Positions 28,700 to 57,753 of a DNA stretch of 64,000 nt are shown here, one piece after another. The stretch comes from Verrucomicrobiia bacterium (GTDB taxonomy: Bacteria; Verrucomicrobiota; Verrucomicrobiia; Limisphaerales; DASXHY01): contig DASTXC010000123.1 of NCBI GenBank assembly GCA_035765675.1, forward strand, positions 11,180 to 75,179, given 5' to 3'. The position numbers and the translations under genes were made by a program. How positions within the stretch are numbered: the first letter of the stretch is position 1; every line of letters starts with the position of its first letter. The notes beneath the pieces were generated by a model, which was not told the DNA's origin, searched no databases, and saw nothing but the letters and a program-made list of their open reading frames with translations.

Positions 28700-29128
28700 A
28701 TGAAATGCATGAACACGATTGAAACGGAAGCGCCGACGCAGATAGTCACCTGCGAGGTGCGAATGCCCATGGGCATTCTTGGCTTCGAGCAGATGAAAAA
28801 TTATCTGCTGATCGCCAATCCCGAGGAAGCGCCCTTCCGCTGGCTTCAGGTCAAAGACAATCCATCACTCGCATTCGTCGTCATCGATCCTTTTCTCGTA
28901 GTGCCGGATTATCATCCCGACATTCCGCAGAGCGACGTGGAATTTCTCGGGCTCGATAAACCCGAAGAAGCCGCCCTGCTCAACATCGTCACGCTGCACG
29001 GTTCCAATCGCGCGACCATCAATCTCAAAGGCCCGGTGGTCGTCAATCGCAATACCGGCGTCGGCAAACAGGTCATTCTCGCCAACGCCGCGGAATATTC
29101 CGTCCAGCATCCGCTGCCCCTTTCGTAA
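28700..29128 (+). CDS. fliW: Flagellar assembly factor FliW
   Basis: 142 aa. MPMGILGFEQMKNYLLI...PFRWLQ...SLAFVVIDPF...PDY...TINLKGPVVVN...GKQVIL is typical FliW/DUF180. Located directly upstream of csrA. Confidence 0.9.
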   Translation: MKCMNTIETEAPTQIVTCEVRMPMGILGFEQMKNYLLIANPEEAPFRWLQVKDNPSLAFVVIDPFLVVPDYHPDIPQSDVEFLGLDKPEEAALLNIVTLHGSNRATINLKGPVVVNRNTGVGKQVILANAAEYSVQHPLPLS

Positions 29129-29146: not shown

Positions 29147-29419
29147 ATGCTCATTCTCTCCCGCAAATCCGGCGAAAGCATCGTGATCGACGGCCGCATC
29201 CATTTGAAGATCGTGCGCGTCGAAGGTGATGTCGTGAAGGTCGGCATTGAAGCCCCGTCCGACGTGCCGGTGCATCGGCAGGAAGTTTACGACGAAATCC
29301 AGCGCAACAACAAACAAGCGCTCACCACACAAAAAGCGCCGCTGCCCCGGATTCCGCTCGCAAAAATCAAATCTCCGGCCGCCGCCGCATCTCCGGCCGC
29401 TCCCTCGAAAAGCCTATGA
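29147..29419 (+). CDS. csrA: Carbon storage regulator CsrA (flagellar type, Pro/Ala-rich C-terminal tail)
   Basis: MLILSRKSGESIVIDGRIHLKIVRVEGDVVKVGIEAPSDVPVHRQEVYDEI, followed by a ~35-aa tail. The stop overlaps the flagellin ATG (ATGA, 29416-29419). Confidence 0.95.
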   Translation: MLILSRKSGESIVIDGRIHLKIVRVEGDVVKVGIEAPSDVPVHRQEVYDEIQRNNKQALTTQKAPLPRIPLAKIKSPAAAASPAAPSKSL

Positions 29420-30219
29420 TCATCAGCACCAACATCAGCTCGCAGCTCTCCGCCAACAATCTGGAGGCCAGCCAAACCCTGCTCAGCAAGTCGCTCTCGC
29501 GCCTCAGCTCCGGCAGCAAAATTGTCAGCCCGGCCGATGACGCCGCGGGCATGGCGGTGGGTTCGCGATTGACCGCGCAGATTCGCCGCGTTGATGCCGC
29601 GCGCGGCAATGTAGGCAATGCGATTTCCTTTACCCAGACGCAGGACGGTTATCTCAAGAAGATTGCCGACGCCCTCACCCGCATGAGCGAACTTTCGCTC
29701 CAGGCGCAGGACGTGACCAAGTCCGACGCGGACCGCACTTTGTATCAAAGCGAATATTCGCAGCTCAGCGAATTCATCAGCACGTCGGCCACAACCGATT
29801 TCAACGGCGTGAGTTTGTTCTCCGGAGCGACCATTGACGTGACGCTCGATTCCGAAGGCAACACGCTCACGATGAATGGCATCAGCCTCAGCTCACAGAT
29901 TTACAACGACGTTCTCGGCGCAGATCTCAACACCGTCGCTGACGCCCGCCTGGCGCTCGACAAAGTGAAGCTCGCGATCACGCAGCTTTCGCAGGATCGC
30001 GCCGGCATTGGCGCCTATCAATCGCGCCTGAACTACACGTCCGATCAATTGACCGTCAGCAAAGAAAACCTGACCGCCGCGAATTCGCGGATTCAGGACG
30101 TGGATGTCGCCGAGGAATCCACGGAATTTGCGAAGCAGAATATTTTGGTGCAATCCGGCACCGCGATGCTGGCCCAGGCGAACAGCCTGCCGCAGAGCGT
30201 GCTGAAGTTATTGCAATAA
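29416..30219 (+). CDS. Flagellin (short, 267 aa)
   Basis: MIISTNISSQLSANNL...LSRLSSGSKIVSPADDAAGMAV (N-terminal D0/D1). C-terminal NSRIQDVDVAEESTEFAKQNILVQSGTAMLAQANSLPQSVLKLLQ. Confidence 0.95.
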   Translation: MIISTNISSQLSANNLEASQTLLSKSLSRLSSGSKIVSPADDAAGMAVGSRLTAQIRRVDAARGNVGNAISFTQTQDGYLKKIADALTRMSELSLQAQDVTKSDADRTLYQSEYSQLSEFISTSATTDFNGVSLFSGATIDVTLDSEGNTLTMNGISLSSQIYNDVLGADLNTVADARLALDKVKLAITQLSQDRAGIGAYQSRLNYTSDQLTVSKENLTAANSRIQDVDVAEESTEFAKQNILVQSGTAMLAQANSLPQSVLKLLQ

Positions 30220-30326: not shown

Positions 30327-31052
30327 ATGGAACAACACAGGCAACTGAGTTCAGCCCGACGCCGGTTCACTTTTGAAACCGCCGCTCGTCCCGCCGCCAC
30401 GATCGCGACTGCGGCTGCAGTCAATCAACCGCGTTGCGTTCCGCCGAAATCCACCGACCTCGCCGATCTCAAAGACTGGTGCCTCACGCGCGCCGACGAG
30501 TGGTACGCGCAAAAGGAATTCGGATTCGCCCGCGACTTTCTGCAACACGCCCTCGACCTCGATCCGTTCGACGTCGAAATCTGGATCGCGCTCGGCAGCC
30601 TGCATTTCACTTCGAACAATCTCGATGCCGCGCTGTTTGCTTTCACACAAGCTGATGAACTGCGTCCCGACAATGCGACGCTCCAGCTTCATCTCGCCGT
30701 GGTGCAGCAACACCGCCAAAGCTGGGCAAACGCTGAAACCCATTTCCGCAACTCACTCGACCTGCAACCCGAGAACCTCGGTGCGCTGAAACTTTTTGCC
30801 GGTTTCCTGATGGCCGGCGAACGCTTCGCCGAAGCCCGCGAAATTCTTGAACGCGCGCTGATGCTGGATCTGGATGATATGGAGATATTCCTGAGCCTTG
30901 GGGTTTGTTGGTATCGATTGAAGCGATATCATGCCGCGAGATCGTGCTTCAACCGAATCCTGACACTTAGCCCCCACGATCCGATCGCTCAGGGAAACCT
31001 GAACGCAGCCGAACGCGAAATACTCAACCAGCAAAACGAATTCAAACCATGA
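30327..31052 (+). CDS. TPR repeat protein
   Basis: Several TPR units (WYAQKEFGFARDFLQHALDLDP, IWIALGSLHFTSNNLDAALFAFTQADELRP, ...). The stop overlaps the next start (ATGA, 31049-31052). Confidence 0.75.
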   Translation: MEQHRQLSSARRRFTFETAARPAATIATAAAVNQPRCVPPKSTDLADLKDWCLTRADEWYAQKEFGFARDFLQHALDLDPFDVEIWIALGSLHFTSNNLDAALFAFTQADELRPDNATLQLHLAVVQQHRQSWANAETHFRNSLDLQPENLGALKLFAGFLMAGERFAEAREILERALMLDLDDMEIFLSLGVCWYRLKRYHAARSCFNRILTLSPHDPIAQGNLNAAEREILNQQNEFKP

Positions 31053-31915
31053 ATGTCTCCACCGCTTCATCCACCACTGATACAATTTCAGGCCCCGAGT
31101 CGCTCCCCCTGCTGCCGGGAAGCAAGGCAGCTTCGCTCTTCGCCAGCATCCGGCCGCCACACAACAAACTGTTCAGCCGTTATCAGGCGATGTTTCCCTC
31201 GATTGAAGGCTGGCTCTTCTGGGAAGCCGTGCTGCTGCTGCAGCATCTTAACCGCGCTCAAGTGGCGGAAGGCATTGTCGGAAACTTCGCCGAAATCGGG
31301 GCGTATCGTGGCAAGCTGAGCCTGGCAATGGCCACATTCCTGAACCCCGACCGGGAACTGCTGATTGTCAATGACATCTTCGACATGCCCGAACTCAACA
31401 CTTCCTGTTCGGGAATGGGCGCCACCGTTTCCGCCTTCGCTCAGAACTTTCGCAAACTCGATCCCGATCCAAAATATGTCCGGCTGCTGATCAAACGCAG
31501 CGACGCCGTTACGCCGGAGGAGATCGGCTCCGGAATCCGGTTCTTCAGCGTGGATGGCGGCCATTCAGCCGATGAAACCCGGAACGACATGCGCGTCGCG
31601 GCACTCACACTGCATGATCGCGGAATGATTGTTCTCGACGACTATTTCAATCAAGAATGGCCCGGCGTTGCTGAGGGCGTGGACGATTATTTCAAACAGC
31701 ATGACGATCTCGCGCCGCTGGCGGCGTTCTATAACAAGTTCGTTTTCGTGAAACGGTCTTCGCTGGAATGGTTCAGAAATCTCCTTCAGAAGCATGCATT
31801 CGATGCGTTCTGCCAGAGCAACAACTGGCTGGTGCGCGCCCGAACGCTTCATGGCTTCGACTACCGTCTGGTGTCAACGGCAAAGGCGGTTCGCCCTGCG
31901 CCGCCCGTTCAGTAG
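31049..31915 (+). CDS. Class I SAM-dependent methyltransferase-like protein (Methyltransf_24/TylF-like, by eye)
   Basis: GNFAEIGAYRGKLSLAMATFL...LLIVNDIFD and FFSVDGGHSADETRNDM...GMIVLDDYFNQEWPGV resemble glycan/macrolide O-methyltransferase folds. Confidence 0.55.
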   Translation: MNVSTASSTTDTISGPESLPLLPGSKAASLFASIRPPHNKLFSRYQAMFPSIEGWLFWEAVLLLQHLNRAQVAEGIVGNFAEIGAYRGKLSLAMATFLNPDRELLIVNDIFDMPELNTSCSGMGATVSAFAQNFRKLDPDPKYVRLLIKRSDAVTPEEIGSGIRFFSVDGGHSADETRNDMRVAALTLHDRGMIVLDDYFNQEWPGVAEGVDDYFKQHDDLAPLAAFYNKFVFVKRSSLEWFRNLLQKHAFDAFCQSNNWLVRARTLHGFDYRLVSTAKAVRPAPPVQ

Positions 31916-31934
31916 TCATAGCCGACCGAACCTC

Positions 31935-34900
31935 ATGAATCCCGCCACTTTCATCAGCTCAAACGCCGCGGTTCGTGAAAGCCAATCCACGCCGTTCGTG
32001 GCGCTGTTCAATGACACGGGACGGACCGCGCATGTTGGATGTCGGGGAGTCTCGCTCGCCCACGACACAATGCTGGCAGCAGCCGGTTTCAAAATTGCGG
32101 TCCGCAGTTTTCTCGGCGAATGGCATGAACTCTGGCAAGGAAATCCGGAAAACTCTCTCCGCGCTTTTCGCAATTCCAGGCTCGCCCGCGATTTGCGGAG
32201 AGTGGATGCCGTGATTGTCAATGGCGAGGGCACCATCCATCACGGCGGCGGGCTGCATCTGCTCACGATTCTCGCGGGCGCACAGGAAATGGGATTGCCC
32301 ACGTTCCTGGTGAATGCGGTTTTTCAAGAGTGCGAGTGTTATGCCGATACACTTCGGAAGCTCACCGATTTCACGGTTCGGGACGCAGCTTCATCGGCTT
32401 ATCTGAAACAACTCGGCATTCCCCATCGCATTGTTCTGGATTCCATCTTTGATGCTCCTTTTGATTCCAATCCGCTGAATGATTTCAAAGGCAAAGTGGT
32501 GATCACGGACTGGCATCCGACCCGCGAGGGCGACGTGGGTTGCGCGCTGAAACAACTGCTTCGCGAGTTGGGCACTGAAGCCGTTTTCTACCCGTTGGAG
32601 GATCCGCAGCGGGAACGAGACTGGCGCCACGCGGTCGCGGACCTCGCCCAGGCAAAGCTCGTAATTACGGCCCGTCACCACGGCGTTTGCCTTGCTGCGC
32701 TGGCGGGCGTACCGTTTGTTGCTCTGGGATCGAACACCTGGAAAGTCGAGGGAATGTTAGAACTGCTTCCCGGAAATCTGAAAGTGTGTTCAGACCTCCC
32801 TATGTTGCGCCAGGAGTGCGAACGCGCCGCGTTAAACCGGAAACTTTTTAAGGAAATTCAAAGACATGTTCTCGGCCAACGCCCACTTTCCACCTTTGAG
32901 AAACTGGCGTGCCTTCCCCCGAACAAACCGTTGGCCACCCGGCGATTAAAAATCGATTTAAACAAACCCATGAAGACCAGCACATCGGGCATCCTGCTGC
33001 TGCCTACCGGCATTTCGCAGTTAGCGACAATGATCGCAGCACTGCGCCAGATGAACATCGAGACCGGAGACCTGCGCGTGCTTTCAATCATCTCCTGTTT
33101 CAACGCCGCCATGGAAACCGCCCTGCGCGCGGCCTGCGAGATTTGGGGAGCGCGTTACTGCGGAAACATTTCCAGGGTTGTTCGAAACTGGCGGCTCGAT
33201 CCTGACCAACTCAGCCCTGCGGAAGCTCAATCATGGCGGAGCCATCCGGAAGAAGTGATCAGTGAACGCCTGCTTCAAATAGTTCCCGAACTCCGCGAGC
33301 ACTGCGGTTTGCGAACGCTCGTGCCGGCGCGTCCTAATATGCCGGAAGATTTTTACTTTTTATCCGCGCTCAAACCTTCCTCGGTGCATCTGGTTGCCGA
33401 TGGAATCCAGAACGAACTTATTCTCCGCGACTGGACCACGCCCGATTGGCGCGGGTTCAATTCAACTTTGGCTGTCTTTCCCGCCAAAGCCGATATCTGG
33501 TGCCCGGATTATTTGGCTTTGGACAGCGCCGAAATTGGAAACGCAAAGGTGATTGAACCGGCTATCATGTCTGCGGTTTACCGCGAACTGGCCGCCAGTT
33601 CCCTCGGCAAGCACCTTGAACAGCAGATCCGAAGTTGCGGCACGCTTCCCCCGGCGATTGTTCTCAGCCAGCATTTGGGGCTCAGCAAGCTATGCACCGA
33701 GACTGAAGAACTGGATTATTATTCGGCCATTCTTTCGCACCTGGAAAAGGAAGGACTTTCTCCTGTTCTGTTCAAACGTCATCCGCGTGATCCCGGCGCC
33801 AAGACTCAGCGTTTGCTGACAGAATTCCCCAAGGACCGCCTGCCGGTTGTGTTCACGGATGACCTGGCGGCTTGCGTTCCAATTGAATGCCTTCTCCCAT
33901 TGTGGGCAGGGCAGGAACTGACAGTGATTGGCTCATCCTCCTCCGCACTCCTCGGATTACGTAATGACGCATGCGTCACCAGCCTCTGCGCCGACGCGGA
34001 TTTTGTATCCGAACCGCTCCGACAGCAGGTTCTCCAATTTTCCGCAAAACACGGTTTAAAACAATTGCGGCTCGAGAATCCGGCCGTTTCAAATCCGATT
34101 CTGCCGGCCGAAATCGCGGTCCCGCAGACACAGAAACACATTCTGTTCGTCTCGCACGATGCTTCCCGCAGCGGCGCGCCGATGTTTCTTTTGAACCTGC
34201 TGCGCTGGCTGAAGGCGAACACGTCCGCATCCTTCAAAGTTCTCCTCCGCAACGGCGGCCCGCTTGAACCCGAATTCCGCACATTGGCCGAGACTTTCAC
34301 GCCGGAAACATTTGGACGCCATGGCCGCAACCTGGCTGGCGTGAATCTGATTTATTCCAACACCTGCACCAACGGCGAGTTGATCGATTCGCTCGGGCGG
34401 GGCTCCATTCCAGTGCTGACGCACATGCACGAACTGGATTACGCCATTTCGTATTTCGGAGAGAAAAGCTGGATGGCTGCCACGCGCCAGACGTCGCATT
34501 ACTTTGGCTGTGCCGAAGCTGTCGTTCAGACGCTCGCGCAACGCGGAATTTCTGGAAATGTTTCCCGTCATTACGAAGCCATTTCGGTGCAAGAGGTACA
34601 AGCCCGGGCTGCATTGACTCCGCGCGTCGAGGCGAAAAAGAACAACCAGATTCCTGAAAACGCTTTCGTCGTTGCAGCCTGCGGTTCGGCCGACTGGCGA
34701 AAAGGCACCGACCTTTTCATCGAACTCGCTCAAGTGTTGAAGCAGTCGAAAACCAGCCGCCCGGTTCATCTCGTTTGGATCGGACGCTTTCCCGATGACA
34801 ACCATCGCCAACAATACCTTGCAGCCGTTGCGAAAGCGGGCGTGCCGGACCGTCTGCATTTTGCCGGCGAACAAGCGAATCCCTGTCCCTTGCTGAATGC

Positions 34901-37900
34901 GTGCGATCTGTTTGTTCTGACTTCACGCGAAGATCCGTTTCCGCTGGTGATGCTTGAAGCCGCCGCGCTCGGAAAACCGCTGGTGTGCTTCGAACAGTCC
35001 GGCGGCGCTCCGGAATTCTGCACCATGGGCGCTGGAATCGCCGTGCCGCATCTCGACGTTCAAGCAATGGCGAAGGCCTGCGCCGAACTGCTCGAAGATG
35101 AAGTTCGTCGAAATCAAATCGGTGAACGCGCGGCTCAACTCACGCAGGAACATTTCGATATCAACGTCATTGCACCGGCCATCTGGAACGAACTTCAGGA
35201 ACTGCGGAAACACGGCTTGGCCACGAATTCTCGTTCCGTCGTTGAAGCGACACAATCCTCCGCGCAGGAATCCGGTTCCCAGTCAAAAGTTTCGATTGTC
35301 ATTCCCGTTCACAATAATCTCAAGCTGACTGCGGAATGCCTGAACGCCATCCACCGCAATACTTCCGAACAGTCGGATTATGAAATCATTGTGGTTGATG
35401 ACGCGTCCGATGATGGCACGTTCGAATTCCTTCGGAATGCCCGGAAGTTTTATCCGCGATTGCGAACCGTTCAGCTCGGCAGCAATTCCGGATTTTCGCG
35501 CGCCTGCAATGCCGGTGCGCGAGCCGCGCGGGGTGAATTTGTTCTGTTCCTCAACAACGACACGCAACCGGAAGCGGGCTGGTTGGAAGCGTTGCTGTGC
35601 GCCTTTGATCAGGATTCACAGCTTGGCATCGCGGGCAGCCTGTTGCTTTTCCCAAAACGCACAGCAAACGAAAACGAACCCGACCGCGTTCAGCATTGCG
35701 GCATAGCATTCAATTCACGCAAGGAATCACTTCATCTCTACAAATTCTGCCTCGCGGATCAGCCGTTCGTTCGGCAGACCCGTGAGTATCAGGCGGTGAC
35801 TGCCGCAAGCATGATGATTCCGCGCGACCTGTTCAATCAGGTGGGTGGCTTTGATGAAGGCTATCTCAACGGCGGCGAAGACCTGGACCTGTGCTTCAAA
35901 ATCCGCGCCCTCGGCCGCAAGATCATCTGCTGCGCGGAAAGCGTGATCCGCCATTTCGAATCCGCATCCGTCAAGAGCGGACACAGCTCCAGCAACGCGA
36001 ACTATCGACGCTTCCTCGAACGCTGGCAAAATCAGATTCAAGCCGACGAAGAACAATTCTATCAAAACGACGGAATATCCACGCAACGCGGAATGCGCAT
36101 TGCGATGGTCACTCCGCTGCGGCCCCTCAAGACCGGTGTGGCCGATTACGTCGAGGAACTGCTGCCCGAACTCAGCAAACACGCGCGAATCGATTTCTTT
36201 GTCGATGATTTCGTTCCTTCCAGTCGCGAGGTGTTAAAGCATTGCCTTGTTCACTCCATCAGCGACATCGACGGCGCGGACTGGACCTATCGTTACGACG
36301 CCGTGGTGTACCACCTCGGCAACAACCGATTTCACGGCGAGATTTACAAGCTGGCTGCAAATCGTCCGGGCATTGTCGTTCTCCATGAATACGACTGCCG
36401 CGGATGCGCGAATGAACCATCGAGCCGATTGCATTTGCGCGGTGTGTTGAACCGCTCGCAGGCCGTCATCGTTCACAACGAACACTCCCGCCGCCTGCTG
36501 CATCAGGAATTTCCCAGTCTGCCCATCAGCGTCATTCCGCATCTGCTTTCAGAAAAGGCGATGCATGTGGACGCTGCCGCGTCGGCGCGTGAAAGGGTGC
36601 AGCTTCCGAAAAACGCCTTCGTCATTACCTCGCTCGGCCTCGTCCAGCTTCACAAGCGCAATCACATAACGCTCGAAGCGTTTGCCCGTTTCGCGAAACG
36701 CAATCCGCAGGCGCTGCTCGTTCTGGCCGGCGAAGCGCCCGACTCTCAGTTCCGCGCGCTGCTCAATAAACGCATTCAGGACGAATCATTGCAGAACCGT
36801 GTTCGAATCACCGGCTGGGTCACTGACGAACAGTTCTTCGATTACCTCAGTGCGGCTGATGTGACGGTCAATCTCCGTTATCCCGCGCGCGGCGAAGAAT
36901 CCGGCAGCCTCACGCGCATTCTCGGCTGCGGCAAACCCGCCATCGTTTCCAACTTCGCTCAGTTCGCCGACATCCCGGACGAATGCGTGATCAAGCTCGA
37001 TTTTGACAATGAGGTGAATGATCTCGTTGCGATCTGGGAAAACCTGATCAAGAACCCGGGCGAACGTGAAAAACGCGCCACTGCTGCGCGAAACTATTAC
37101 CGGACGCGCAATGACGCACGACAGGTCGCCGCGCTCTATGCCCAAACCTGCCGCGAAGCCGGCCGGATCTCCGAAGGCGATCTGCAACTGCGCCGTCCGC
37201 GCTACCAGTTCCCGTCCGACAAACGCGCAAAACTTCTCTGGCAGGCACCGGTGTTCGATTCTCATGACCGCAACCGTGGAATCATTCTCGCGCTCGACCG
37301 CTTGAAGGTTCCAATTCGGGTTCAATCCAATGCATCTCTGAATTCCAGCTCCGCGTTGCTCAATCCCGAAGACTTCGAACGGTTGAATGAACTTTCCACA
37401 CTGGAAACCTCGGAGCAGGTCATTCAGGTCTTCAGCGGCGATCCAACCGCATTCCGCCGCGCCTCAAATGCATTCGCGACGGTTGCCTTCGTCCGCTCTT
37501 TGGACGCTGTTGAAATCCGTCGCTGGATTCAAACCCGCGCAGACGAATTCTGGGCGGGTTCGGAAGCCATTCGACAAGCATTGATCCAGGCCGGCGTTGC
37601 GGAAACACAGGTGGCGCTCGTTCCACCCGGCGTCTCCGCTCTGGCTTACGGCGCCACGGTCAACGAACTGCGCCCGAATGGATTGTTTCGTTTTCTATGT
37701 GTCACCGACTGGAGTCCGGGCAGCGGCTGGGAAACTGTGGCACGAGCTTTCCTGCGCGAATTCCGGAATCCCGCCGAAGCGCAGTTGGTGATCAAATGTT
37801 CCCTGACCCATTTGAGTCACGCAGAAAAGGTTGCGCTTTACCAACAGACCTTGTCTCGGTTCTCTCGCGAGAACCCGGAGTTCTCGCCGGAACAATTTCG

Positions 37901-40900
37901 AATGATCAGCGGCGACACGCATTGCCGCGGCGAAGACATCATGCCCGCCTTCTATTCGTCCGGGAGTGCATTGATCCACGTTCCGACAAATCCATCCACT
38001 GGACGCGCCGTGATCGAAGCACTCGCGCTGGGACTGCCCGTGATCGCGGGCGAAGCCGTTAACGCCGCATATCCCGACCTGGGCAAATTCCTGAAGATCG
38101 TCCGGCGCAAACCCAATCAATCCGTCGCGGATGAAACACATTTGAGACAATTGATGCGTGCGCTCGTGGCCGACCGTTTGGGTTCACAACTTCCTGCGAT
38201 CAAAGCGCGCCAGCATTGCCTCTCGCACCTGACGTGGGAAAGCATTGCTGAATTCGCAGCCGCGCGGCTTGCCAATCTGATGGATCGCGAGACCACTTCG
38301 ACAACGCAGCCGGATCTCGAAAAGAAATCCGCGCCATCAACGACCGTTGACAAACCTGCTACTTACCTGCCCCCGTCCGAACTTCTGAGCGCCCGGCAGG
38401 TTCGCTGGCAGTCACCGGTCTTCGATCCCAGCGGCTATGCGGATGAATCCCGTTATCTGATCCGCCACCTCAAGGATCAGGTTCCAATGCGGCTCGAATC
38501 GATTGGCCGCATGTCGAAGCAATTTCGCGAGGCGATGGAGCAAACCGAACGGCGCGATCTGGAGAAGCTGCTTGCAAACCCCGTTGCTTCAGAACATATC
38601 CAGGTCACTGTCGCTCCCGCGTACGCCTTGCGACGTGATCCTCAGGCGCGCTATGCGGTGGGAAGAACAACGTTCGAAACCGACCGTCTCCCGGCCGACT
38701 GGGTCGCCGCCTGTAACGGGATGGATGAAATCTGGGTTCCAGGAAATTTCAATGCGGACACTTTCCGAAAAGCGGGCGTCACGGTGCCGATACACATTGT
38801 TCCGCAGGGAGTGGATACAGAACGCTTTCGCCCAGGATTGAAGCCGCTTCAGATTCAAGGCCGCCGCGGCTTTGCATTCCTTTCTGTCTTTGAATGGATC
38901 CACCGCAAGGGCTGGGATGTTCTTCTTCGCGCCTGGGCGGAAGCATTCCGAGCTGACGACGATGTTTGCCTGATCATTCGCTCTTATCTGCCAAATGTCA
39001 CGGAAGGCTCGAGTTCAACAGATCAAATCAAACAGCGCATTTCAGACTTTCTGAAAAAGGAACTTGGAAGAACGCTCGACAGCGTTGCGCCGATCATTGT
39101 TCTCGGTGAACAGATCGCCCAGCTTGATATGCCCCGTCTGTATGCCAGCGCGGACGCCTTCGTGCTGCCAAGCCGGGGCGAAGGATGGGGACGCCCTTTC
39201 ATGGAAGCGATGGCCTGTGGGCTGCCGGTGATTGGAACCCGCTGGAGCGGACAGTTGGCGTTTATGAACGATGCCAGCTCGCTGCTGATTGACATCGAAG
39301 GTCTGGAAAACATCGGTAACGAGATGGAGTTCCCGATGTATCGTGGTCATCAATGGGCTTGCCCTTCCGTCAATCATCTCAAGACCCTGCTCCAGCAAGT
39401 CCTGGCTGATCCCGAATCCGCCCGAAAGAGAGGACAAGCCGCCGCCGCTGACGTCCGGGAAAACTGGTCCTGGACCAAAGCCGCCGCATTCGCGAAGTTG
39501 CGCATCGCCGCGATCAACGAACAACTCGGCGCGAAGCCAGAAGCAACAGCGTCGCAATCGATCTCCAAACACGAAGCCACAGTCGTCGCCTGGGAAGGCT
39601 CGTTCCTTGATTTCGGCAGTCTTTCGCATGTGAATCGCGCGATCACAGAATCGCTGGAAAAAGATTCTTCCATTGATCTCCGTCGAGTAAACAATGGGCA
39701 AACGCCTGGAGACATTCTTTCCAATTACAAATCCAGGCTGTCGAATACCGTTGCCAATGCTGAAATCACGGTTCGCCATTCGTGGCCGCCGAACTGGTCG
39801 AAGCCAAAGTCCGGCAAGCTCGCCGTCATCCAGCCCTGGGAATTCGGTGCGTTACCAGCCGATTGGGTGAAGCAATCCGCAAACGTGGACGAGTTCTGGG
39901 TCCCCACCGAAACCGTGCGGCGGTTCTACACCGAATCCGGTATTGATGCCGCAAAGGTTCACATTGTTCCGAACGGAATTGATCCCAGCGTGTTTCATCC
40001 GGATGCCTCCCCCCGACAACTGCCAACGAAGAAAAATTTTCGTTTCCTGTTTGTCGGCGGAACCATTGGCCGAAAAGGTCCGGATGTTCTTCTGAACGCG
40101 TATCTCAAGAACTTCACGGCAGCGGATGACGTTTGCCTCGTGATCAAGGATTTCGGCGGCAACTCGGTTTATCGCGGTCAGACCTTTGCCGAGCAGATTA
40201 AACAGGCACAGCGGATTCCAAACGCGCCGGAAATTCTCCATCTCGACGAGGAACTTTCACCGGAAGAATTGCCGGGACTTTACACTGCGTGCCAGTGTCT
40301 GGTTCATCCGTATCGCGGCGAAGGTTTCGGGTTGCCGGTTTTAGAAGCGATGGCCTGCGGCCTTCCAGTGATCGTCACCGGCGGAGGCGCTACGGACGAT
40401 TTCGCTACGGACGATTTCGCATATCGTATTCCTTCGACACGCCGCAGCATCGGCAATGAAGTTGGCGGAATGAAAACCGTTTCAGAAGCATGGTTGCTCG
40501 AACCCGACGCGAATGCTCTCGCCGATCGAATGAAATGGGCCGTGGCAAATCCAAATGAAGCTCGCCAGCAGGGAAGCGCCGCCAGCGAACATGCCCGACG
40601 CAACTGGACCTGGCAGCGCGCCGCACAAATCGCCGCTGAACGAATTCGCGCACTCACCTGTCGCGACGCCGCGAAGCCGGTTGTCGCTTCAGCCAAATCC
40701 ATTCCGGCCGTTGCGACCCTCGGTGTGCTTTCGAAGGCGCGGGAACAATACGCTCGAAAAGCATGGTCTCAGGCATGGACCGAAACGATTGTCGCTATCG
40801 GCAAGCGTCCCTTCCATCCCGAAGCGTTTCTGCTGCTCGCTGAAATTGCCCTCGCCGCGGGTGATGGTGACAGCGCAAAAAAACTGGCGCAGCATGCGCG

Positions 40901-42632
40901 TGTTCTCGCGCCCGGCTGGAAAGCTGCGAAACAGTTTCTGCAAAAGCCGCTGAAGGGTAATGCAACGCCCGACTGGCTCGTGTTGCCCGAATCCATCAGC
41001 AATTCACCATCAGCCATCAACCATCGCCTCTCCGTCTGCGTCATCACGAAAAACGAAGAACGCTTCATTGAACAATGTCTGAAGTCGATCAAGCCGATTG
41101 CACATCAGATCGTCGTGGTGGATACCGGCTCGACGGATCGCACGGTGGAGATTGCGAAAAGTCTCGGTGCGGAAGTTCATGCGTTCACCTGGTGCGATGA
41201 TTTCAGCGCGGCGCGCAATGCCGCGCTGGAACATGCGACAGGCGATTGGGTTTTGATGCTGGACGCTGACGAAGAACTGCCTGCCGATCAGCACGCGAAT
41301 TTGTTGAAGGACATTCAGAAAAATTCCGCGATTGCCTGTCGCCTGCCGCTCGTGAATATCGGTCAAAACGACGGTCGCAGTTTTGTGCCGCGTTTGTTCC
41401 GCAACGCGCCGGGCGCGCATTTCTACGGGCGCATTCACGAACAGGTTTTTCCAAGTCTGATCCCTTATTGCAAACCCTGGGGATTGGAAACGCTGCTCGG
41501 CTCCGCACAGTTGCTGCATCACGGTTACACGAAAGAACTCGTGAAAGATCGCAACAAGATTGAGCGCAATCTGCGTTTGCTGGAACAGGCTGTTGTGGAA
41601 CGTCCGAACGATCCGAACCTGATCATGAATTTTGGATTGGAACTGGTTCGCTCCGGCGAACTGACCCAAGGTTTGGAGAAATATCGCCAAGCGTTTCAAT
41701 TGATGTCCGCGCAACCATCGTCGGATGTGGTTCCCGAATTGCGCGAAGTGCTGCTCACGCAGATCACGGCGCATCTTTACAAGGAACGCCAGCACGATGA
41801 AATCGTTCGCATCCTGGCTTCGCCGCTGGCGAAAAACGGCGGATTGACCGCATCGCTGCATTTCGCACTCGGCCTCGCGCTGTTTGAGTTGAAGCAGCCA
41901 CGCGAAGCGGCGGAGCAAATGCGTCAATGCGTGGCAAAACGAAATCAGCCCGCGCTGGCTCCCATCAACACGGACATTCTCACTGCCGCGCCGAATCATT
42001 GTCTCGCATTGAGCCTCGCGCAGACCGGCGATGTAGCGGGAGCCAAAGAAGCTTTTAAAACTGCGCTCACGGAATCCGGCAGGCTGGAGAATGTGAAATT
42101 CGATTTCGCAAAGTTGCTGGCTTCACAGAATGAACCGGTCGAAGCGTTGCACAAATTGCATGAAGTGGTTGCGCAGGATCCAACTCATGTGAACGCGTGG
42201 AAACTCGGCGCGGAGATTGCCTTGAAGCAGCGGGAGTTTCTGGAATTCGCCTGCGACTGGACCAGCGAAGCGATTCGCGCGCTGCCGAACGATCCGACGA
42301 TCATCGCGTTTCGCGCGGAAGCATTGCTGCTCAGCCAGCAGACGCAACACGCGCGGCCGCTTTGGGAAAAAGCGTGCAACTGCGTTCGTCCGCCCAATGC
42401 GCTTGCAGCATTCATTCTCTGTTCGGCAGTGGAATCGCAACCGATTCCCGAAACGCGCAATGCCGATGAAGAACTCGCGGCCAGCAAAGCGTTCGTGGGA
42501 TGGTATCAACGGCTCGTTAATGCCGGCGCAAAGGAAACGGTGATTCGCTTGAATTCACGGGTGGATGCATTGCGAACTTCATTGCCGACCGCAGCTCGGC
42601 TGCTGGATTCAGCACTGGCGGAAGCGAAGTAA
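31935..42632 (+). CDS. 3565-aa multi-module glycosyltransferase megaprotein (pyruvyl-transferase-like, sialyltransferase-like, 5x GT4(-like), 2x GT2, TPR)
   Basis: Single uninterrupted frame. The first ATG after the upstream stop is at 31935; the ORF-track start at 31794 overlaps the methyltransferase gene. Module motifs are listed in the findings. Ser/Thr/Gln/Pro-rich linkers separate the modules. Confidence 0.85.
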   Translation: MNPATFISSNAAVRESQSTPFVALFNDTGRTAHVGCRGVSLAHDTMLAAAGFKIAVRSFLGEWHELWQGNPENSLRAFRNSRLARDLRRVDAVIVNGEGTIHHGGGLHLLTILAGAQEMGLPTFLVNAVFQECECYADTLRKLTDFTVRDAASSAYLKQLGIPHRIVLDSIFDAPFDSNPLNDFKGKVVITDWHPTREGDVGCALKQLLRELGTEAVFYPLEDPQRERDWRHAVADLAQAKLVITARHHGVCLAALAGVPFVALGSNTWKVEGMLELLPGNLKVCSDLPMLRQECERAALNRKLFKEIQRHVLGQRPLSTFEKLACLPPNKPLATRRLKIDLNKPMKTSTSGILLLPTGISQLATMIAALRQMNIETGDLRVLSIISCFNAAMETALRAACEIWGARYCGNISRVVRNWRLDPDQLSPAEAQSWRSHPEEVISERLLQIVPELREHCGLRTLVPARPNMPEDFYFLSALKPSSVHLVADGIQNELILRDWTTPDWRGFNSTLAVFPAKADIWCPDYLALDSAEIGNAKVIEPAIMSAVYRELAASSLGKHLEQQIRSCGTLPPAIVLSQHLGLSKLCTETEELDYYSAILSHLEKEGLSPVLFKRHPRDPGAKTQRLLTEFPKDRLPVVFTDDLAACVPIECLLPLWAGQELTVIGSSSSALLGLRNDACVTSLCADADFVSEPLRQQVLQFSAKHGLKQLRLENPAVSNPILPAEIAVPQTQKHILFVSHDASRSGAPMFLLNLLRWLKANTSASFKVLLRNGGPLEPEFRTLAETFTPETFGRHGRNLAGVNLIYSNTCTNGELIDSLGRGSIPVLTHMHELDYAISYFGEKSWMAATRQTSHYFGCAEAVVQTLAQRGISGNVSRHYEAISVQEVQARAALTPRVEAKKNNQIPENAFVVAACGSADWRKGTDLFIELAQVLKQSKTSRPVHLVWIGRFPDDNHRQQYLAAVAKAGVPDRLHFAGEQANPCPLLNACDLFVLTSREDPFPLVMLEAAALGKPLVCFEQSGGAPEFCTMGAGIAVPHLDVQAMAKACAELLEDEVRRNQIGERAAQLTQEHFDINVIAPAIWNELQELRKHGLATNSRSVVEATQSSAQESGSQSKVSIVIPVHNNLKLTAECLNAIHRNTSEQSDYEIIVVDDASDDGTFEFLRNARKFYPRLRTVQLGSNSGFSRACNAGARAARGEFVLFLNNDTQPEAGWLEALLCAFDQDSQLGIAGSLLLFPKRTANENEPDRVQHCGIAFNSRKESLHLYKFCLADQPFVRQTREYQAVTAASMMIPRDLFNQVGGFDEGYLNGGEDLDLCFKIRALGRKIICCAESVIRHFESASVKSGHSSSNANYRRFLERWQNQIQADEEQFYQNDGISTQRGMRIAMVTPLRPLKTGVADYVEELLPELSKHARIDFFVDDFVPSSREVLKHCLVHSISDIDGADWTYRYDAVVYHLGNNRFHGEIYKLAANRPGIVVLHEYDCRGCANEPSSRLHLRGVLNRSQAVIVHNEHSRRLLHQEFPSLPISVIPHLLSEKAMHVDAAASARERVQLPKNAFVITSLGLVQLHKRNHITLEAFARFAKRNPQALLVLAGEAPDSQFRALLNKRIQDESLQNRVRITGWVTDEQFFDYLSAADVTVNLRYPARGEESGSLTRILGCGKPAIVSNFAQFADIPDECVIKLDFDNEVNDLVAIWENLIKNPGEREKRATAARNYYRTRNDARQVAALYAQTCREAGRISEGDLQLRRPRYQFPSDKRAKLLWQAPVFDSHDRNRGIILALDRLKVPIRVQSNASLNSSSALLNPEDFERLNELSTLETSEQVIQVFSGDPTAFRRASNAFATVAFVRSLDAVEIRRWIQTRADEFWAGSEAIRQALIQAGVAETQVALVPPGVSALAYGATVNELRPNGLFRFLCVTDWSPGSGWETVARAFLREFRNPAEAQLVIKCSLTHLSHAEKVALYQQTLSRFSRENPEFSPEQFRMISGDTHCRGEDIMPAFYSSGSALIHVPTNPSTGRAVIEALALGLPVIAGEAVNAAYPDLGKFLKIVRRKPNQSVADETHLRQLMRALVADRLGSQLPAIKARQHCLSHLTWESIAEFAAARLANLMDRETTSTTQPDLEKKSAPSTTVDKPATYLPPSELLSARQVRWQSPVFDPSGYADESRYLIRHLKDQVPMRLESIGRMSKQFREAMEQTERRDLEKLLANPVASEHIQVTVAPAYALRRDPQARYAVGRTTFETDRLPADWVAACNGMDEIWVPGNFNADTFRKAGVTVPIHIVPQGVDTERFRPGLKPLQIQGRRGFAFLSVFEWIHRKGWDVLLRAWAEAFRADDDVCLIIRSYLPNVTEGSSSTDQIKQRISDFLKKELGRTLDSVAPIIVLGEQIAQLDMPRLYASADAFVLPSRGEGWGRPFMEAMACGLPVIGTRWSGQLAFMNDASSLLIDIEGLENIGNEMEFPMYRGHQWACPSVNHLKTLLQQVLADPESARKRGQAAAADVRENWSWTKAAAFAKLRIAAINEQLGAKPEATASQSISKHEATVVAWEGSFLDFGSLSHVNRAITESLEKDSSIDLRRVNNGQTPGDILSNYKSRLSNTVANAEITVRHSWPPNWSKPKSGKLAVIQPWEFGALPADWVKQSANVDEFWVPTETVRRFYTESGIDAAKVHIVPNGIDPSVFHPDASPRQLPTKKNFRFLFVGGTIGRKGPDVLLNAYLKNFTAADDVCLVIKDFGGNSVYRGQTFAEQIKQAQRIPNAPEILHLDEELSPEELPGLYTACQCLVHPYRGEGFGLPVLEAMACGLPVIVTGGGATDDFATDDFAYRIPSTRRSIGNEVGGMKTVSEAWLLEPDANALADRMKWAVANPNEARQQGSAASEHARRNWTWQRAAQIAAERIRALTCRDAAKPVVASAKSIPAVATLGVLSKAREQYARKAWSQAWTETIVAIGKRPFHPEAFLLLAEIALAAGDGDSAKKLAQHARVLAPGWKAAKQFLQKPLKGNATPDWLVLPESISNSPSAINHRLSVCVITKNEERFIEQCLKSIKPIAHQIVVVDTGSTDRTVEIAKSLGAEVHAFTWCDDFSAARNAALEHATGDWVLMLDADEELPADQHANLLKDIQKNSAIACRLPLVNIGQNDGRSFVPRLFRNAPGAHFYGRIHEQVFPSLIPYCKPWGLETLLGSAQLLHHGYTKELVKDRNKIERNLRLLEQAVVERPNDPNLIMNFGLELVRSGELTQGLEKYRQAFQLMSAQPSSDVVPELREVLLTQITAHLYKERQHDEIVRILASPLAKNGGLTASLHFALGLALFELKQPREAAEQMRQCVAKRNQPALAPINTDILTAAPNHCLALSLAQTGDVAGAKEAFKTALTESGRLENVKFDFAKLLASQNEPVEALHKLHEVVAQDPTHVNAWKLGAEIALKQREFLEFACDWTSEAIRALPNDPTIIAFRAEALLLSQQTQHARPLWEKACNCVRPPNALAAFILCSAVESQPIPETRNADEELAASKAFVGWYQRLVNAGAKETVIRLNSRVDALRTSLPTAARLLDSALAEAK

Positions 42633-42638
42633 CTGACG

Positions 42639-42668
42639 TAGCGGCGTCTCGTAAGAGCGCCGCATTTT
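42639..42668 (+). terminator. Rho-independent terminator after megaprotein gene
   Basis: GCGGCG (42639-42644), 11-nt loop, CGCCGC (42656-42661), followed by ATTTTTT. Confidence 0.75.
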
Positions 42669-42678
42669 TTCAGATCGC

Positions 42679-42708
42679 ATGGCTCGCGCTTGCGAACTGT
42701 TGGCGCGA
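42679..42708 (+). repeat. Repeat family F, second copy
   Basis: GGCTCGCGCTTGCGAACTGTTGGCGCGAAC. Compare 28262-28291. Confidence 0.85.
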
Positions 42709-53706: not shown

Positions 53707-55422
53707 TTAAGAGCCAAAGGTTTTCGTCAGATACGCCAATTGCTGATTGATATTCGCCTGCGCAGTTTCCATGGCGACAAAGCTCGCGGTCATGCGCGCT
53801 TTGTCTGCCGCGATAATGCGCTCCATTTTTTCAATCTGATCATCAATGGCGTTGGCCTGTTTGGTCAGATTGTCCTGATGCGTGATCAGCGTTCCATTGT
53901 CGCCGATGGTTTTAGTGATATAAGCGTCCATCCCGACAGCCAAACCGCTCGTGGCGTTTGAGAAGAAATCTTTAACGTCCGCGAGATGATTTGCCAGGGC
54001 GTCGTTGAGCGCGGTTTCATCGCTGAGCGAAATCGTGCTGTCTTTGCCGTTGGTCTGAATGCCAAGATCGTCGAGATGATCAATCGATCCAGTCAATCCG
54101 CTGAGCGTGGTGTAAGCCAGCCGGCGCAACGAGGTGGAAATAGATTGCGCGTCGCTGTCTCCAGCCAGAATTCCCGCGCTCACTTTGCCGGAGGAATCCG
54201 TGGAGCTGGCGGTGTAGCTATCGACGAGCGACTGGACTTTATTGAAAGCGGAAATGAAATCCTGAACCGCGGTTTTGATCGCGCCGGTATTGTTTCCCAC
54301 CGTGACCGTGGTGCTGGAATCTTCTTTCAGTACCGCGACCGATAATCCGCTGATGCCGGAACTGGATTCCGTGATCGTGTTGGACTGGCTGATCAGCGGG
54401 TCGCCATCGTTGATGGTGTAAACCAGGTTGTTGCCCCGCGACAAAGTGCCGTTGGTCAATCCAGCCGCTTCCAGGAAATTTCCCGTCACGTCTTCCAGCG
54501 CAATACCCATATCGCCTGTCGCTTTGCTGGCGAGAATGAAGCGATCGTTGACCGTATCGTAACTCGCCGTCACGCCAGCCGAAGAAGCATTGATCCGCGA
54601 AATCACATTCGCGATGGAATCAGTGCCGGCATTGAAGGAAATGGAAACGCCGTTGATCTTGAACTCGCCCTCGCCGCTGCCGCCATCGGAAATCGCGGTA
54701 TTGAAATGCGTCGCGTTCAACGTGTCGGTCAGACGTACGCTGCCGAGCGCGAGGCTGCTGGAAATGGATCCCGTGCCGTTGTTGGTCAGGCGCGCGGTTT
54801 GAAGGAAATTGCTGCTGTCCGTGGCGCTGCCGAGAATGATCTCATCGCTGCTCGTCAGAACAATTTTGTCGGAGGCGGAATCGTAACTGCCGGTGACGGT
54901 GCCACCCGTGGCAGTCGAAATTTTATCAAATACACTTTGCAACGTATCGTCGGTCGCAATCGTGATCTGCTTGCCATTCACGGTGAAGGTGCCGGCGGTG
55001 ACGGTTGCGGGAAAATTGGCGTCGCTCAGCTTCAAGGCGGAAACGTCATTGGTCGTGCTCAACGGGCTGGCGACATTGGACGCGCCGCGAATCTGTGAAG
55101 CAGTCGCGAGCTGCGAAATATTGAACGTGTAAGTGCCCGCGGCGGCGCCGGTGCTGACGGAAGCGGTGGCGACGGAAGTGTCCGAGGAAGAGGAAGTGCG
55201 GCTGTCGTACAACGTTGGATCTTTGAGCGCGGCCAGCTTGGACTGGAGCGTGGTCATCAGGCTCTTGATGGTGCCGTAGGCGTTGTTCTTCGTGTTCAGC
55301 TTGCTCTGGTTGGTGAGCAAAGCCGTCTGCGGCGAACGTTCCACCGAAACCATTTGATCCACAAACGATTTCCAGTCGAACCCGGAGGCGAGTCCGGACA
55401 GTGACAGATCTGAGGTAGCCAT
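53707..55422 (-). CDS. fliD: Flagellar filament cap protein FliD
   Basis: LSLSGLASGFDWKSFVDQMVSVERSPQTALLTNQSKLNTKNNAYGTIKS is an FliD N-terminus. C-terminal ...IEKMERIIAADKARMTASFVAMETAQANINQQLAYL. Confidence 0.9.
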   Translation of the reverse strand: MATSDLSLSGLASGFDWKSFVDQMVSVERSPQTALLTNQSKLNTKNNAYGTIKSLMTTLQSKLAALKDPTLYDSRTSSSSDTSVATASVSTGAAAGTYTFNISQLATASQIRGASNVASPLSTTNDVSALKLSDANFPATVTAGTFTVNGKQITIATDDTLQSVFDKISTATGGTVTGSYDSASDKIVLTSSDEIILGSATDSSNFLQTARLTNNGTGSISSSLALGSVRLTDTLNATHFNTAISDGGSGEGEFKINGVSISFNAGTDSIANVISRINASSAGVTASYDTVNDRFILASKATGDMGIALEDVTGNFLEAAGLTNGTLSRGNNLVYTINDGDPLISQSNTITESSSGISGLSVAVLKEDSSTTVTVGNNTGAIKTAVQDFISAFNKVQSLVDSYTASSTDSSGKVSAGILAGDSDAQSISTSLRRLAYTTLSGLTGSIDHLDDLGIQTNGKDSTISLSDETALNDALANHLADVKDFFSNATSGLAVGMDAYITKTIGDNGTLITHQDNLTKQANAIDDQIEKMERIIAADKARMTASFVAMETAQANINQQLAYLTKTFGS

Positions 55423-55564: not shown

Positions 55565-56368
55565 TTACGAGAGGAGGCGCAAAGCGGACTGAGGAGTGGC
55601 GTTTGCCTGCGCCAACATCGCTGTGCCTGCCTGGACCAGGATGTTGTATCGGGCAAATTGCGTGCTCTCTGAAGCGACATCCACATCTTTGATGCGGCTG
55701 TTCGCGGCCGAGAGGTTGTCTTTCAACACACCGAGCTGATCGCTGTGCATCGTCAGGCGCGAAACGTTCGCACCGACCGTGGCGCGATCCGTCGCCAGGG
55801 TTTCGATGGCGTTCTTCACGTTCGTCAACGCGGTTTGCGCATTCGAGAGCGTGTCCACAGTCGAGGATGTCGCCGTGGTGTAGGTTGTCGCACCGAGATC
55901 CACGCCCGACATGCTGAAGGTATTGCCTTCGCTGTCTGTCGTGATCGCATGTGAGGTGCCATCAAACAGGCTGACGCCGTTGAAGTCCTTGGTGGCCAGG
56001 TCATCAATGTAGGCGCCGAGGGTCGTGAATTCCTGGTTATACAGGGCACGATCCGTGTCCGATTTGGTGGCGTCCTGGGCGAGAACCGCCAGTTCGCTCA
56101 TACGGTTCAAACCATCCGAAACCTTCTTCAGGAACCCGTCCTGCGTCTGGTTGAACGAGATGGCGTTGCCGACGTTGGTGTTGGCCGCTTCGATGCGGTT
56201 GATCTGCGCGTCAAAGCGCATGGAGACCGCGAGACCCGCCACGTCATCTTCCGGCGAAGTGATTTTCGATCCGGAGGACAAGCGCGCGAGCGACTTGCTC
56301 AAGAGGCTGCTCGATTGTGACAGCAAGCGAGAGCTGGTTTGTGCCGATATGTTAGTATTAATGACCAT
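55565..56368 (-). CDS. Flagellin (267 aa)
   Basis: MVINTNISAQTSSRLL...LARLSSGSKITSPEDDVAGLAV. C-terminal NSRIKDVDVASESTQFARYNILVQAGTAMLAQANATPQSALRLLS. Confidence 0.95.
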   Translation of the reverse strand: MVINTNISAQTSSRLLSQSSSLLSKSLARLSSGSKITSPEDDVAGLAVSMRFDAQINRIEAANTNVGNAISFNQTQDGFLKKVSDGLNRMSELAVLAQDATKSDTDRALYNQEFTTLGAYIDDLATKDFNGVSLFDGTSHAITTDSEGNTFSMSGVDLGATTYTTATSSTVDTLSNAQTALTNVKNAIETLATDRATVGANVSRLTMHSDQLGVLKDNLSAANSRIKDVDVASESTQFARYNILVQAGTAMLAQANATPQSALRLLS

Positions 56369-56943: not shown

Positions 56944-57753
56944 TTAGCTGAGCAGTTTCAGCACGGACTGGGGCATCGAGTTGGCCTGAGCCAACATGGC
57001 CGTGCCGGCCTGCACCAGAATATTGAACCGTGCGTACTGCGTGCTTTCATCCGCGACATCCACATCCGTGATCCGGCTTTTTGCCGAAGTCAGATTGTCT
57101 TTCAACACACCGAGCTGGTCGGCTGTTGACGTGAGGCGTGAGACGTTGGCGCCAATCCCGGCGCGATCGGCTGACAATTGGCTGATCGCCGCTTTCACCG
57201 CGTCGAGGGCCAGTCCGGCATTGCCCACCGTAAGGATATCCACACCCGAACCAATGGCGTTCGTGTAGGTGGCAGCGCTGAGGTCGATTCCAGCCATGGT
57301 GAAGGTGTTGCCTTCGCTGTCGATGGTGACATCAAGGGCCGCTCCGTCGAAGAGGCTGACGCCGTTGAAGTCTTTCGTGGCGAGATCGCTGATGTAGTTG
57401 GCGAGCGTGGTGAACTCCTGATTGTACAATCCGCGGTCCGTGTCCGACTTGGTTGCGTCCTGAGCCAGGATGGTCAGTTCGCTCATGCGGTTTAAAGCCC
57501 CGGCGACTTTGTCCAGGAATCCATCCTGGGTCTGGCTGAACGAGATCGCATTTCCGAGGTTGCTTGAAGCGGCGTCAATGCGGCTGAGCTGAGCTTCGAA
57601 GCGGGTGGCAACGGCTTGTCCGGCCACGTCATCTTCAGGAGAAACAATCTTCGAACCGGAAGACAAACGAGCAAGAGACTTGCTGAGGTTGCTGGAGGAT
57701 TCCATAAGCAGGCGGGCGCTGCTCTGGGCCGACATATTTGTATTGATAACCAT
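56944..57753 (-). CDS. Flagellin (269 aa)
   Basis: MVINTNMSAQSSARLL...LARLSSGSKIVSPEDDVAGQAV. C-terminal KSRITDVDVADESTQYARFNILVQAGTAMLAQANSMPQSVLKLLS. Confidence 0.95.
   Translation of the reverse strand: MVINTNMSAQSSARLLMESSSNLSKSLARLSSGSKIVSPEDDVAGQAVATRFEAQLSRIDAASSNLGNAISFSQTQDGFLDKVAGALNRMSELTILAQDATKSDTDRGLYNQEFTTLANYISDLATKDFNGVSLFDGAALDVTIDSEGNTFTMAGIDLSAATYTNAIGSGVDILTVGNAGLALDAVKAAISQLSADRAGIGANVSRLTSTADQLGVLKDNLTSAKSRITDVDVADESTQYARFNILVQAGTAMLAQANSMPQSVLKLLS

Follow-up and report, generated by a model that had tools for sequence, protein, structure and literature searches.

Flagellin glycosylation usually depends on one protein-directed transferase assisted by separate helper enzymes. 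Here, we describe a gene that would unite these roles. In a stretch of 64,000 nucleotides from an uncultured Verrucomicrobiia bacterium (contig DASTXC010000123.1 of assembly GCA_035765675.1; hereafter, the window), one open reading frame (ORF) on the + strand (31935..42632) lies in a flagellin locus and encodes a protein of 3565 residues, which we call the giant. The giant welds what looks like a whole pathway, eight modules with glycosyltransferase (GT) folds and a pyruvyl-transferase, to a GmaR-type unit for targeting flagellin. We favor, with moderate confidence, the reading that it is one soluble cytoplasmic multi-enzyme which starts and extends a complex O-glycan on short flagellins; flagellin glycosylation, the donor sugars and the activity of every module are predicted from sequence.

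In FlmG of Caulobacter crescentus, an N-terminal tetratricopeptide repeat (TPR) domain is combined with a GT-B-type domain at the C-terminus, the transferase for pseudaminic acid. FlmG is described as a modular protein-directed flagellin glycosyltransferase in which the TPRs bind flagellin (PMC7591256). GmaR transfers GlcNAc to flagellin in the cytoplasm; its GT domain is followed by a TPR domain, a linker and finally an anti-repressor domain (PMC9638930). The combination of a GT2 domain with TPRs is a signature in use to predict flagellin glycosyltransferases in Clostridium (PMC13317340). Multi-module glycosyltransferases that perform successive steps on one glycan are exemplified by WbbB, KpsC and the chlorovirus PBCV-1 A111/114R (PMC9587256, PMC10148158, PMC7826918): the described examples have two to three transferase modules and build lipid-linked or viral-capsid glycans. 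By contrast, the giant has eight GT-fold modules, a pyruvyl-transferase and a built-in protein-targeting unit.

Giant bacterial genes otherwise mostly encode surface proteins or nonribosomal peptide synthetases (NRPS) and polyketide synthases (PKS), according to a passage in PMC5352709 (citing Reva and Tummler, 2008). NRPS/PKS megasynthases resemble the giants, by analogy only, in being products of big genes made of catalytic modules that are swapped between relatives. The megasynthases have carrier domains, whereas a Pfam scan of the whole giant protein finds no carrier or PP-binding family and no thioester-chemistry domain; the growing product would be attached to the protein substrate rather than to the enzyme. 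A search of the searchable literature, which is no proof of novelty, found no description of giant multi-GT proteins from flagellin loci or of the large, phylum-spanning family of 1000-5000 residues to which this one belongs. Modules of these types, and an initiator like GmaR, are already known; what is remarkable is the degree of fusion, the family size and the variability.

A single frame with a GmaR-type C-terminal unit

The original prediction, made from the DNA alone, claimed a single uninterrupted frame of 3565 residues, and the frame is indeed open from ATG 31935 to the stop at 42632: the + strand has no stop codon from 31794 until 42630-42632. ATG 31935, the likely start, lies 19 nt past the TAG (31913-31915) of the upstream gene and was also picked by an independent gene caller on another assembly, L014. 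The product has a mass of 395 kDa and a pI of 6.8. No membrane helix is predicted in it: the Kyte-Doolittle mean is at most 1.67 in every 19-residue window, with the top windows corresponding to Rossmann-core segments, and the giant is therefore read as soluble and cytoplasmic. The three Ser/Thr/Pro-rich linkers quoted in the prediction were located, as low-complexity segments, at residues 1094-1120, 2113-2149 and 2523-2552.

The best solved relative of the giant is GmaR, the Listeria flagellin O-GlcNAc transferase. The GmaR GT domain (22ao_A, chain residues 10-199) matches residues 3031-3220 with an E value of 1.2e-27, and the GmaR TPR domain, in the GmaR141-637 structure (7x9r, chain residues 27-236), matches residues 3189-3404 with E values of 5e-8 to 5e-7. 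The first match falls on module M10 (41010..41579; residues 3026-3215), a GmaR/SunS-type GT2 with a DAD motif (PF00535, 90 bits), in which LDADEEL aligns with IDADECV of GmaR and the DxD is retained. The DTGSTD, DADE and HHGY motifs of M10 are invariant, with D85, A86 and D87 of the DAD motif unchanged in 13 family members. M10 also scores 82 bits against the SunS family TIGR04195 and matches 7msp, 7msn and 7msk. It is flanked by a short TPR block that is conserved in relatives, M9 (40680..41009; residues 2916-3025; weak TPR_19/TPR_14 matches), and by the C-terminal TPR block M11 (41580..42632; residues 3216-3565; TPR families).

Similarly to GmaR, the tail of the giant presents a GT2-type domain of about 180 residues followed by TPRs and is encoded with flagellar genes. 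GmaR is a 637-residue protein with one catalytic domain that adds a single GlcNAc, whereas in the giant the shared part is the tail of 3565 residues with eight more enzyme-like modules; the giant has an extra TPR block ahead of the GT2, whereas the GT domain of GmaR is N-terminal. SunS-family and Clostridium enzymes share the GT2+TPR layout with the giant but are single-module proteins of about 400-800 residues. The original prediction likened the giant to FlmG, which turns out to be the wrong subtype: the protein-directed module is GT-A (GT2), and the unit is GmaR/SunS-type (GT-A plus TPR) rather than TPR plus GT-B. FlmG-type membership was rejected on this ground, as judged from the described domain layout of FlmG. 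GmaR-like regulatory moonlighting was also considered and rejected, as the GmaR anti-repressor (MogR-binding) domain finds no match in the giant: of the 503 chain residues of 7x9r, those beyond 236 give no hit.

Integrity of the gene

The window comes from a metagenome-assembled contig of 94 kb, and an assembly or base-calling error could in principle fuse neighboring genes into a single frame. Exact look-up of the giant protein finds no second copy, and, the giant being a singleton at 90% identity, other assemblies were fetched via the neighboring genes. L014 (a Logan assembly of SRR25158471) reproduces window positions 24449-39442 with three mismatches and no gaps. L016 (JGI) corresponds to 29718-32733 at 99.5% identity; L019 (a JGI metagenome) to 36646-43408 at 99.4%, covering 36646-42632 of the ORF; and L018 (another NCBI metagenome-assembled genome, MAG) to 40528-50293 at 98.9%, covering 40528-42632. 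All four are concordant with the window and show no indels in the ORF. The segment at ~32734-36645 is supported by just two nearly identical assemblies, the window and L014.

L019 and L018 represent strains about 1% divergent, whose sole indels, at 42799 and 42860, are intergenic. Within the gene, their synonymous to non-synonymous differences from the window number 20:4 and 22:4, respectively, and are skewed to the third codon position; purifying selection covers the C-terminal 6 kb. Repeat-driven misassembly was rejected, as the gene contains no direct repeats of 25 nt or longer; so was the idea that a patchwork composition betrays a chimera, since GC content at third codon positions (GC3) is even, 0.57-0.68, over all modules. 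Comparable giant ORFs also exist in relatives. An artefact is thus very improbable: indel-free overlaps, synonymous bias, the lack of repeats and even GC3 mean that the frame is real, and the giant is a real gene under purifying selection.

The enzyme modules

The giant was cut at the boundaries given by the original prediction and the pieces were scanned against Pfam; residue numbers refer to the 3565-residue protein. Two weak modules, M2 and M6, were settled by AF2 structure prediction and Foldseek comparison with the PDB. Every module read by eye was recovered, by profile, paralogy or fold, including the sialyltransferase-like M2 and the eroded GT4 M6, giving eight GT-fold modules, a pyruvyl-transferase and two TPR blocks. 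The predicted count of about nine enzymes stands, but one of them (M6, residues 1756-2145) has lost donor-binding residues and is probably inactive, a likely spacer or scaffold.

The N-terminal M1 (31935..32963; residues 1-343) is pyruvyl-transferase-like (PS_pyruv_trans PF04230, 58.4 bits with a gathering threshold, GA, of 25.3). It reaches 52 bits against the CsaB equivalog TIGR03609, whose cut-off is 213, and is therefore not a CsaB orthologue. Homologues of M1, 60-69% identical, are fused to CheR/S-adenosylmethionine (SAM) methyltransferases, TPRs or a polysialyltransferase (polyST)-like module.

M2 (32964..34121; residues 344-729) is a sialyltransferase-like GT-B module with a marginal profile match (A-2_8-polyST PF07388, 25.8 bits; GA 23.3). 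Its AF2 model (pLDDT 78, pTM 0.83) finds only sialyltransferases among its seven best PDB matches by Foldseek; the top matches are 5wc6, 2yk7 and 4r83, with 5wc6, a bacterial polysialyltransferase, at an E value of 1e-7 and a TM score of 0.53, and the best solved matches also include a Neisseria lipooligosaccharide sialyltransferase and a Photobacterium sialyltransferase. Bacterial sialyltransferases of the GT38/52/80 type carry HP and D/E-D/E-G motifs. KRHPRDP, with an invariant His-Pro, is present in all four M2 family members and falls within the part of M2 aligned to the polyST profile; as judged from the sequence, a possible D/E-D/E-G place is occupied only by ‘ADG’. A PDB sequence search with M1-M2 yielded nothing useful. 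Just three M2 homologues were found among 5.8 billion sequences, one a stand-alone protein of 389 residues and one running into an M3-like domain. PS_pyruv_trans also occurs together with the polyST-like family in P0030 and P0031, proteins of 827-923 residues found in a Cystobacterineae MAG and in an ENA sample; thus, the M1-M2 pairing recurs outside Verrucomicrobia, and the two modules may be a functional couple.

The next three modules are M3, a GT4 (34122..35276; residues 730-1114; Glycos_transf_1, 97 bits) whose type is also fused to the M2 homologue in locus L012; M4, a GT2 (35277..36083; residues 1115-1383; Glycos_transf_2, 102 bits) with PDB sequence matches to the catalytic domains of chondroitin synthase and ppGalNAc-T; and M5, a GT-B module (36084..37199; residues 1384-1755; Glycos_transf_1, 53 bits; NF038229, 77 bits). 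M6 (37200..38369), a degenerate GT4-like module, has sub-threshold matches to the GT4 N-domain only, almost no homologues and, searched alone against PDB sequences, marginal WaaG matches only. It is 25% identical to both M7 and M8 (E ~1e-16), and its model (pLDDT 75, pTM 0.78) matches the GT4 enzymes HepE, PimB’ and WaaG. M7 (38370..39554; residues 2146-2540; Glyco_trans_1_4, 60.7 bits) and M8 (39555..40679; residues 2541-2915; Glycos_transf_1, 68.5 bits) are GT4 modules with an intact EX7E motif, mutually 32% identical. M8 opens the conserved C-terminal cassette: in relatives, it is found with 50-64% identity directly ahead of the TPR-GT2-TPR tail. EX7E, the R/K pair and the profile match are all present in M3, M7 and M8, and catalytic motifs are retained in M3, M4, M7, M8 and M10.

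A family of giants

The M8-M11 region (residues 2541-3565) was searched against 1.84 billion cluster representatives, with 4841 hits below 1e-30; the family statistics come from the best 150 of those hits (50%-identity clusters), among which the window protein appears as P0040. Almost all of these clusters end in a GT4-TPR-GT2-TPR cassette, and their N-terminal arrays differ between clusters. They range from about 500 to 5089 residues; most exceed 1000 residues and 27 have 3000 or more. An assembly line in one polypeptide, which the original prediction called unusual, is so against the literature but not against the databases. When metagenomes were scanned with an alignment of M10-M11, 565 relatives emerged, from which 80 loci were kept. 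Close relatives (M10 at least 53% identical) have ORFs of ~690 to ~3500 residues, most longer than 1700, and distant ones (M10 30-46%) are mostly of the classical size, 340-850 residues.

When the window modules were mapped on 32 other members, only M8-M9-M10-M11, sometimes with an M7-like GT4, were seen to recur, and the window order of M1-M7 was present in none of the 32. Among relatives, M10-M11 are always conserved, M9 usually and M8 in about half, and the rest is variable. Both giants that were scanned have eight or more catalytic modules: an FkbM methyltransferase, four GT2 and several GT1-type modules in P0075, and DUF5672, three GT2 and five GT4 in P0176. A second group of large proteins (P0145, P0148, P0153, P0155, P0164, P0168, P0171, P0176 and P0186; 3100-4100 residues) carries three to five M7/M8-like GT4s and no clear GmaR-like GT2-TPR tail.

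The comparison with relatives bears on whether the giant operates as one line at all. It might instead be cut at its low-complexity linkers, or several of its modules might be dead; this is rather improbable, and would be compatible with the favored model. In relatives, modules of these kinds are distributed in other ways over two to four genes, and the linkers, the altered M5 and M6 (see below) and the scarcity of M6 homologues fit such a picture. However, the Pfam scan of the whole protein finds no protease domain, five modules keep their catalytic motifs and selection acts on the C-terminal 6 kb. Fusions of 2000-5000 residues recur in many lineages, which argues that the linkage itself is tolerated or useful.

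Flagellin as the proposed acceptor

The locus order given in the original prediction is correct, as judged from Pfam matches and from the gene overlaps: on the + strand, fliW (28700..29128; FliW, 127 bits), which is conserved upstream of related giants, is followed by csrA (29147..29419; CsrA, 80 bits), a flagellin gene (29416..30219), a gene for a stand-alone TPR protein of 241 residues (30327..31052; TPR families) and a gene for a SAM methyltransferase of 288 residues (31049..31915; Methyltransf_24, weak TylF match). The csrA stop overlaps the flagellin start in an ATGA at 29416, and the methyltransferase gene is ATGA-coupled to the TPR gene at 31049, an operon-like arrangement with the giant gene next in line. 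The 267-residue flagellin, the proposed acceptor, has Flagellin_N and Flagellin_C domains, i.e., D0/D1 plus a short Ser/Thr-containing middle.

Similar associations are found in relatives. L001, the locus of the closest M1 homologue, contains flgK-flgL-fliW-csrA, a 1097-residue CheR+pyruvyl-transferase protein and a 1979-residue HAD-GT4-TPR-GT2-TPR protein. Matches in a genome collection place multi-GT genes beside flagellin, fliW and csrA in Chloroflexota, Deltaproteobacteria and two Verrucomicrobia MAGs; altogether, multi-GT genes adjoin flagellar genes in L001-L005, L012 and many of L020-L099. Flagellin, FliW, CsrA or FliD is present in 28 of the 80 metagenomic loci, in 24 of the 51 loci flanked by at least 5 kb and in 17 of the 34 flanked by at least 10 kb, whereas chance would give a flagellar marker in ~1%, an estimate from typical genome sizes. 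The recurrent layout is fliW-csrA-(flagellin)-giant-...-orf206-orf229-fliD-flagellin.

GmaR homology of the GT2+TPR unit and synteny with fliW, csrA and flagellin point to a flagellin glycan as the likely product, as the original prediction proposed, with glycosylation itself being inferred. In the pathway we envisage, the C-terminal GmaR-like GT2 with its flanking TPRs would bind flagellin before export and attach the initial sugar to Ser/Thr in its exposed middle. M8, the GT4 often conserved together with the tail, would add the second sugar, and the chain would be lengthened by M7, M5, M4, M3 and the sialyltransferase-like M2, which may add a CMP-activated acidic sugar. The N-terminal pyruvyl-transferase M1 and the separate methyltransferase would finish the glycan, with M6 probably serving as a spacer or scaffold.

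Several observations weigh against this pathway. The GT4 motif is altered in both M5 and M6: M5, as read from the translation, is without the second Glu of EX7E, and in M6 RKG is replaced by GSG and the first Glu of EX7E by Ser, with the second Glu retained. Family scans of ORFs of at least 200 residues in the 64-kb window detect no gene of a CMP-nonulosonic/ulosonic acid pathway, which makes it less likely that M2 is a sialyltransferase. Its nearest stand-alone homologue (P0038, in L013) belongs to a glycan cluster that has no flagellar genes for 10 kb around it. Roughly half of the long-flank relatives have no flagellar marker, and pyruvyl-transferases of the PF04230 type are, to our knowledge, known from pyruvylation of polysaccharides, not from flagellin glycans.

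The last three points would also suit a giant that builds its glycan on some other acceptor, a secreted or surface protein, a lipid or a polysaccharide, and merely shares an island with the flagellins; the adjacent rfaE-domain-II gene may be counted on the same side. We regard this alternative as unlikely. The giant has no membrane helix, and no polyprenyl-phosphate transferase, flippase, polymerase or ABC exporter family, as expected of lipid-linked assembly and export, is detected among the scanned ORFs. The presence of further glycan genes elsewhere in the window was considered and rejected: tblastn with M1-M11 finds no relative of the GT modules in the rest of the 64 kb. Among solved structures, the conserved module is best matched by a flagellin transferase, with the homology extending into the TPRs, and the fliW-csrA-flagellin synteny spans at least three phyla and 47-50% of long-flank loci. 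Flagellin thus remains the acceptor we favor.

A hypervariable island

Three loci, L100 (contig ERZ27274783 k133_3872412), L101 and L102, represent one close relative, with a flagellin 98.9% identical to that of the window. Their flanks share 85-92% DNA identity with window positions 19078-30909, and the homology ends at ~30909, inside the TPR gene. Beyond the break, the L100 island encodes a 457-residue unknown protein, a 433-residue GT2, a 966-residue methyltransferase/TPR protein and a 2124-residue multi-GT protein; the 288-residue methyltransferase is absent. A near-identical flagellin is therefore paired with unrelated glycan machinery: the giant is part of a hypervariable flagellin glycosylation island, the content of which is swapped between close relatives. 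The same swap pattern is seen at O-antigen loci and at flagellin glycosylation islands. Unrelated islands beside 99%-identical flagellins give insight into the strong pressure to diversify that acts on the flagellar surfaces of environmental bacteria.

Conservation declines from the C-terminus, tailoring domains are N-terminal or upstream in the window, L001, L004 and P0075, and a close relative has a different island. These features hint at, and prompted, a tentative idea, which we consider unlikely as it stands: the giants could be reverse-colinear lines, in which the GmaR-like unit starts the glycan, the modules act approximately from the C- to the N-terminus, and capping and tailoring, by sialyltransferase-like, pyruvyl-transferase and methyltransferase modules, are placed at the N-terminal or upstream end. 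Equally speculative, by analogy to PKS/NRPS, is that module order might encode glycan sequence and that island shuffling might diversify flagellar glycans. If module order does mirror glycan sequence, glycan structures would be predictable from sequence. The family offers natural experiments in joining and swapping glycan-building modules, and its members are candidate single-gene cassettes for cytoplasmic protein glyco-engineering.

Other islands differ further. In L012, positions 7707-15749 encode a flagellin, a 784-residue methyltransferase and the M2-M3 fusion, followed by two radical-SAM genes; the M3 part is apparently frameshifted into a 575-residue gene and a 104-residue GT1 fragment. 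This locus suggests that flagellin islands employ still other chemistries. A second GmaR-like GT2 gene, 41-46% identical to M10 and absent from the window, is present on the minus strand downstream of the giant in L020 (2559-3068), L021 (15359-15868), L024 (13415-13948) and L025 (12264-12782).

Surroundings of the giant gene

As the original prediction had it, a heptose-1-phosphate adenylyltransferase-like gene faces the giant: a convergent rfaE-domain-II gene was found 3’ of it (179 bits against a cut-off of 181.5). On the far side of the flagellin region, fliD (53707..55422; FliD_N and FliD_C) and genes for a second (55565..56368; 267 residues) and a third flagellin (56944..57753; 269 residues) lie on the minus strand; these two flagellins, aligned with their paralogue, are 60-65% identical to the first. 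A promoter and terminator scan of 28.1-43.5 kb gave no excess over shuffled controls and is therefore uninformative on operon structure.

Between the giant and orf206-orf229-fliD lies a block of ~9 kb (42876-51682) that contains rfaE domain II, an NPCBM alpha-galactosidase, two PAS histidine kinases and a response regulator with an HD_5 domain. The block looks like an insertion into the flagellin region, because orf206, orf229 and fliD are located a few kb past the giant in the more distant relatives L021, L035 and L042. The two ORFs, of 206 (52075-52695, + strand) and 229 residues (52995-53684, - strand), have no Pfam or NCBIfam match and are conserved (34-51% identity) beside fliD in L020, L021, L032, L035 and L042; they may be uncharacterized flagellar or glycosylation accessory genes.

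The 241-residue TPR gene (30327-31052) may be truncated in public annotation: in its 90% cluster, the product of the NCBI source contig has just 117 residues (P0211), and the JGI and Logan calls have the full 241. Similar signaling sets, a response regulator with HD_5 plus PAS histidine kinases, lie on both sides of the flagellin/glycosylation region (23108-28109 and 45798-51682), with a response regulator-HDOD protein on the left side only. Near the start of the window, three big genes in a row (1629-4403, 5565-10424 and 10690-13878) encode proteins with Ig-like (Big_7), fn3 and CBM_4_9 repeats, one of which has a C-terminal di-haem oxidoreductase domain; a prepilin-type N-methyl protein is encoded at 4485-5312.

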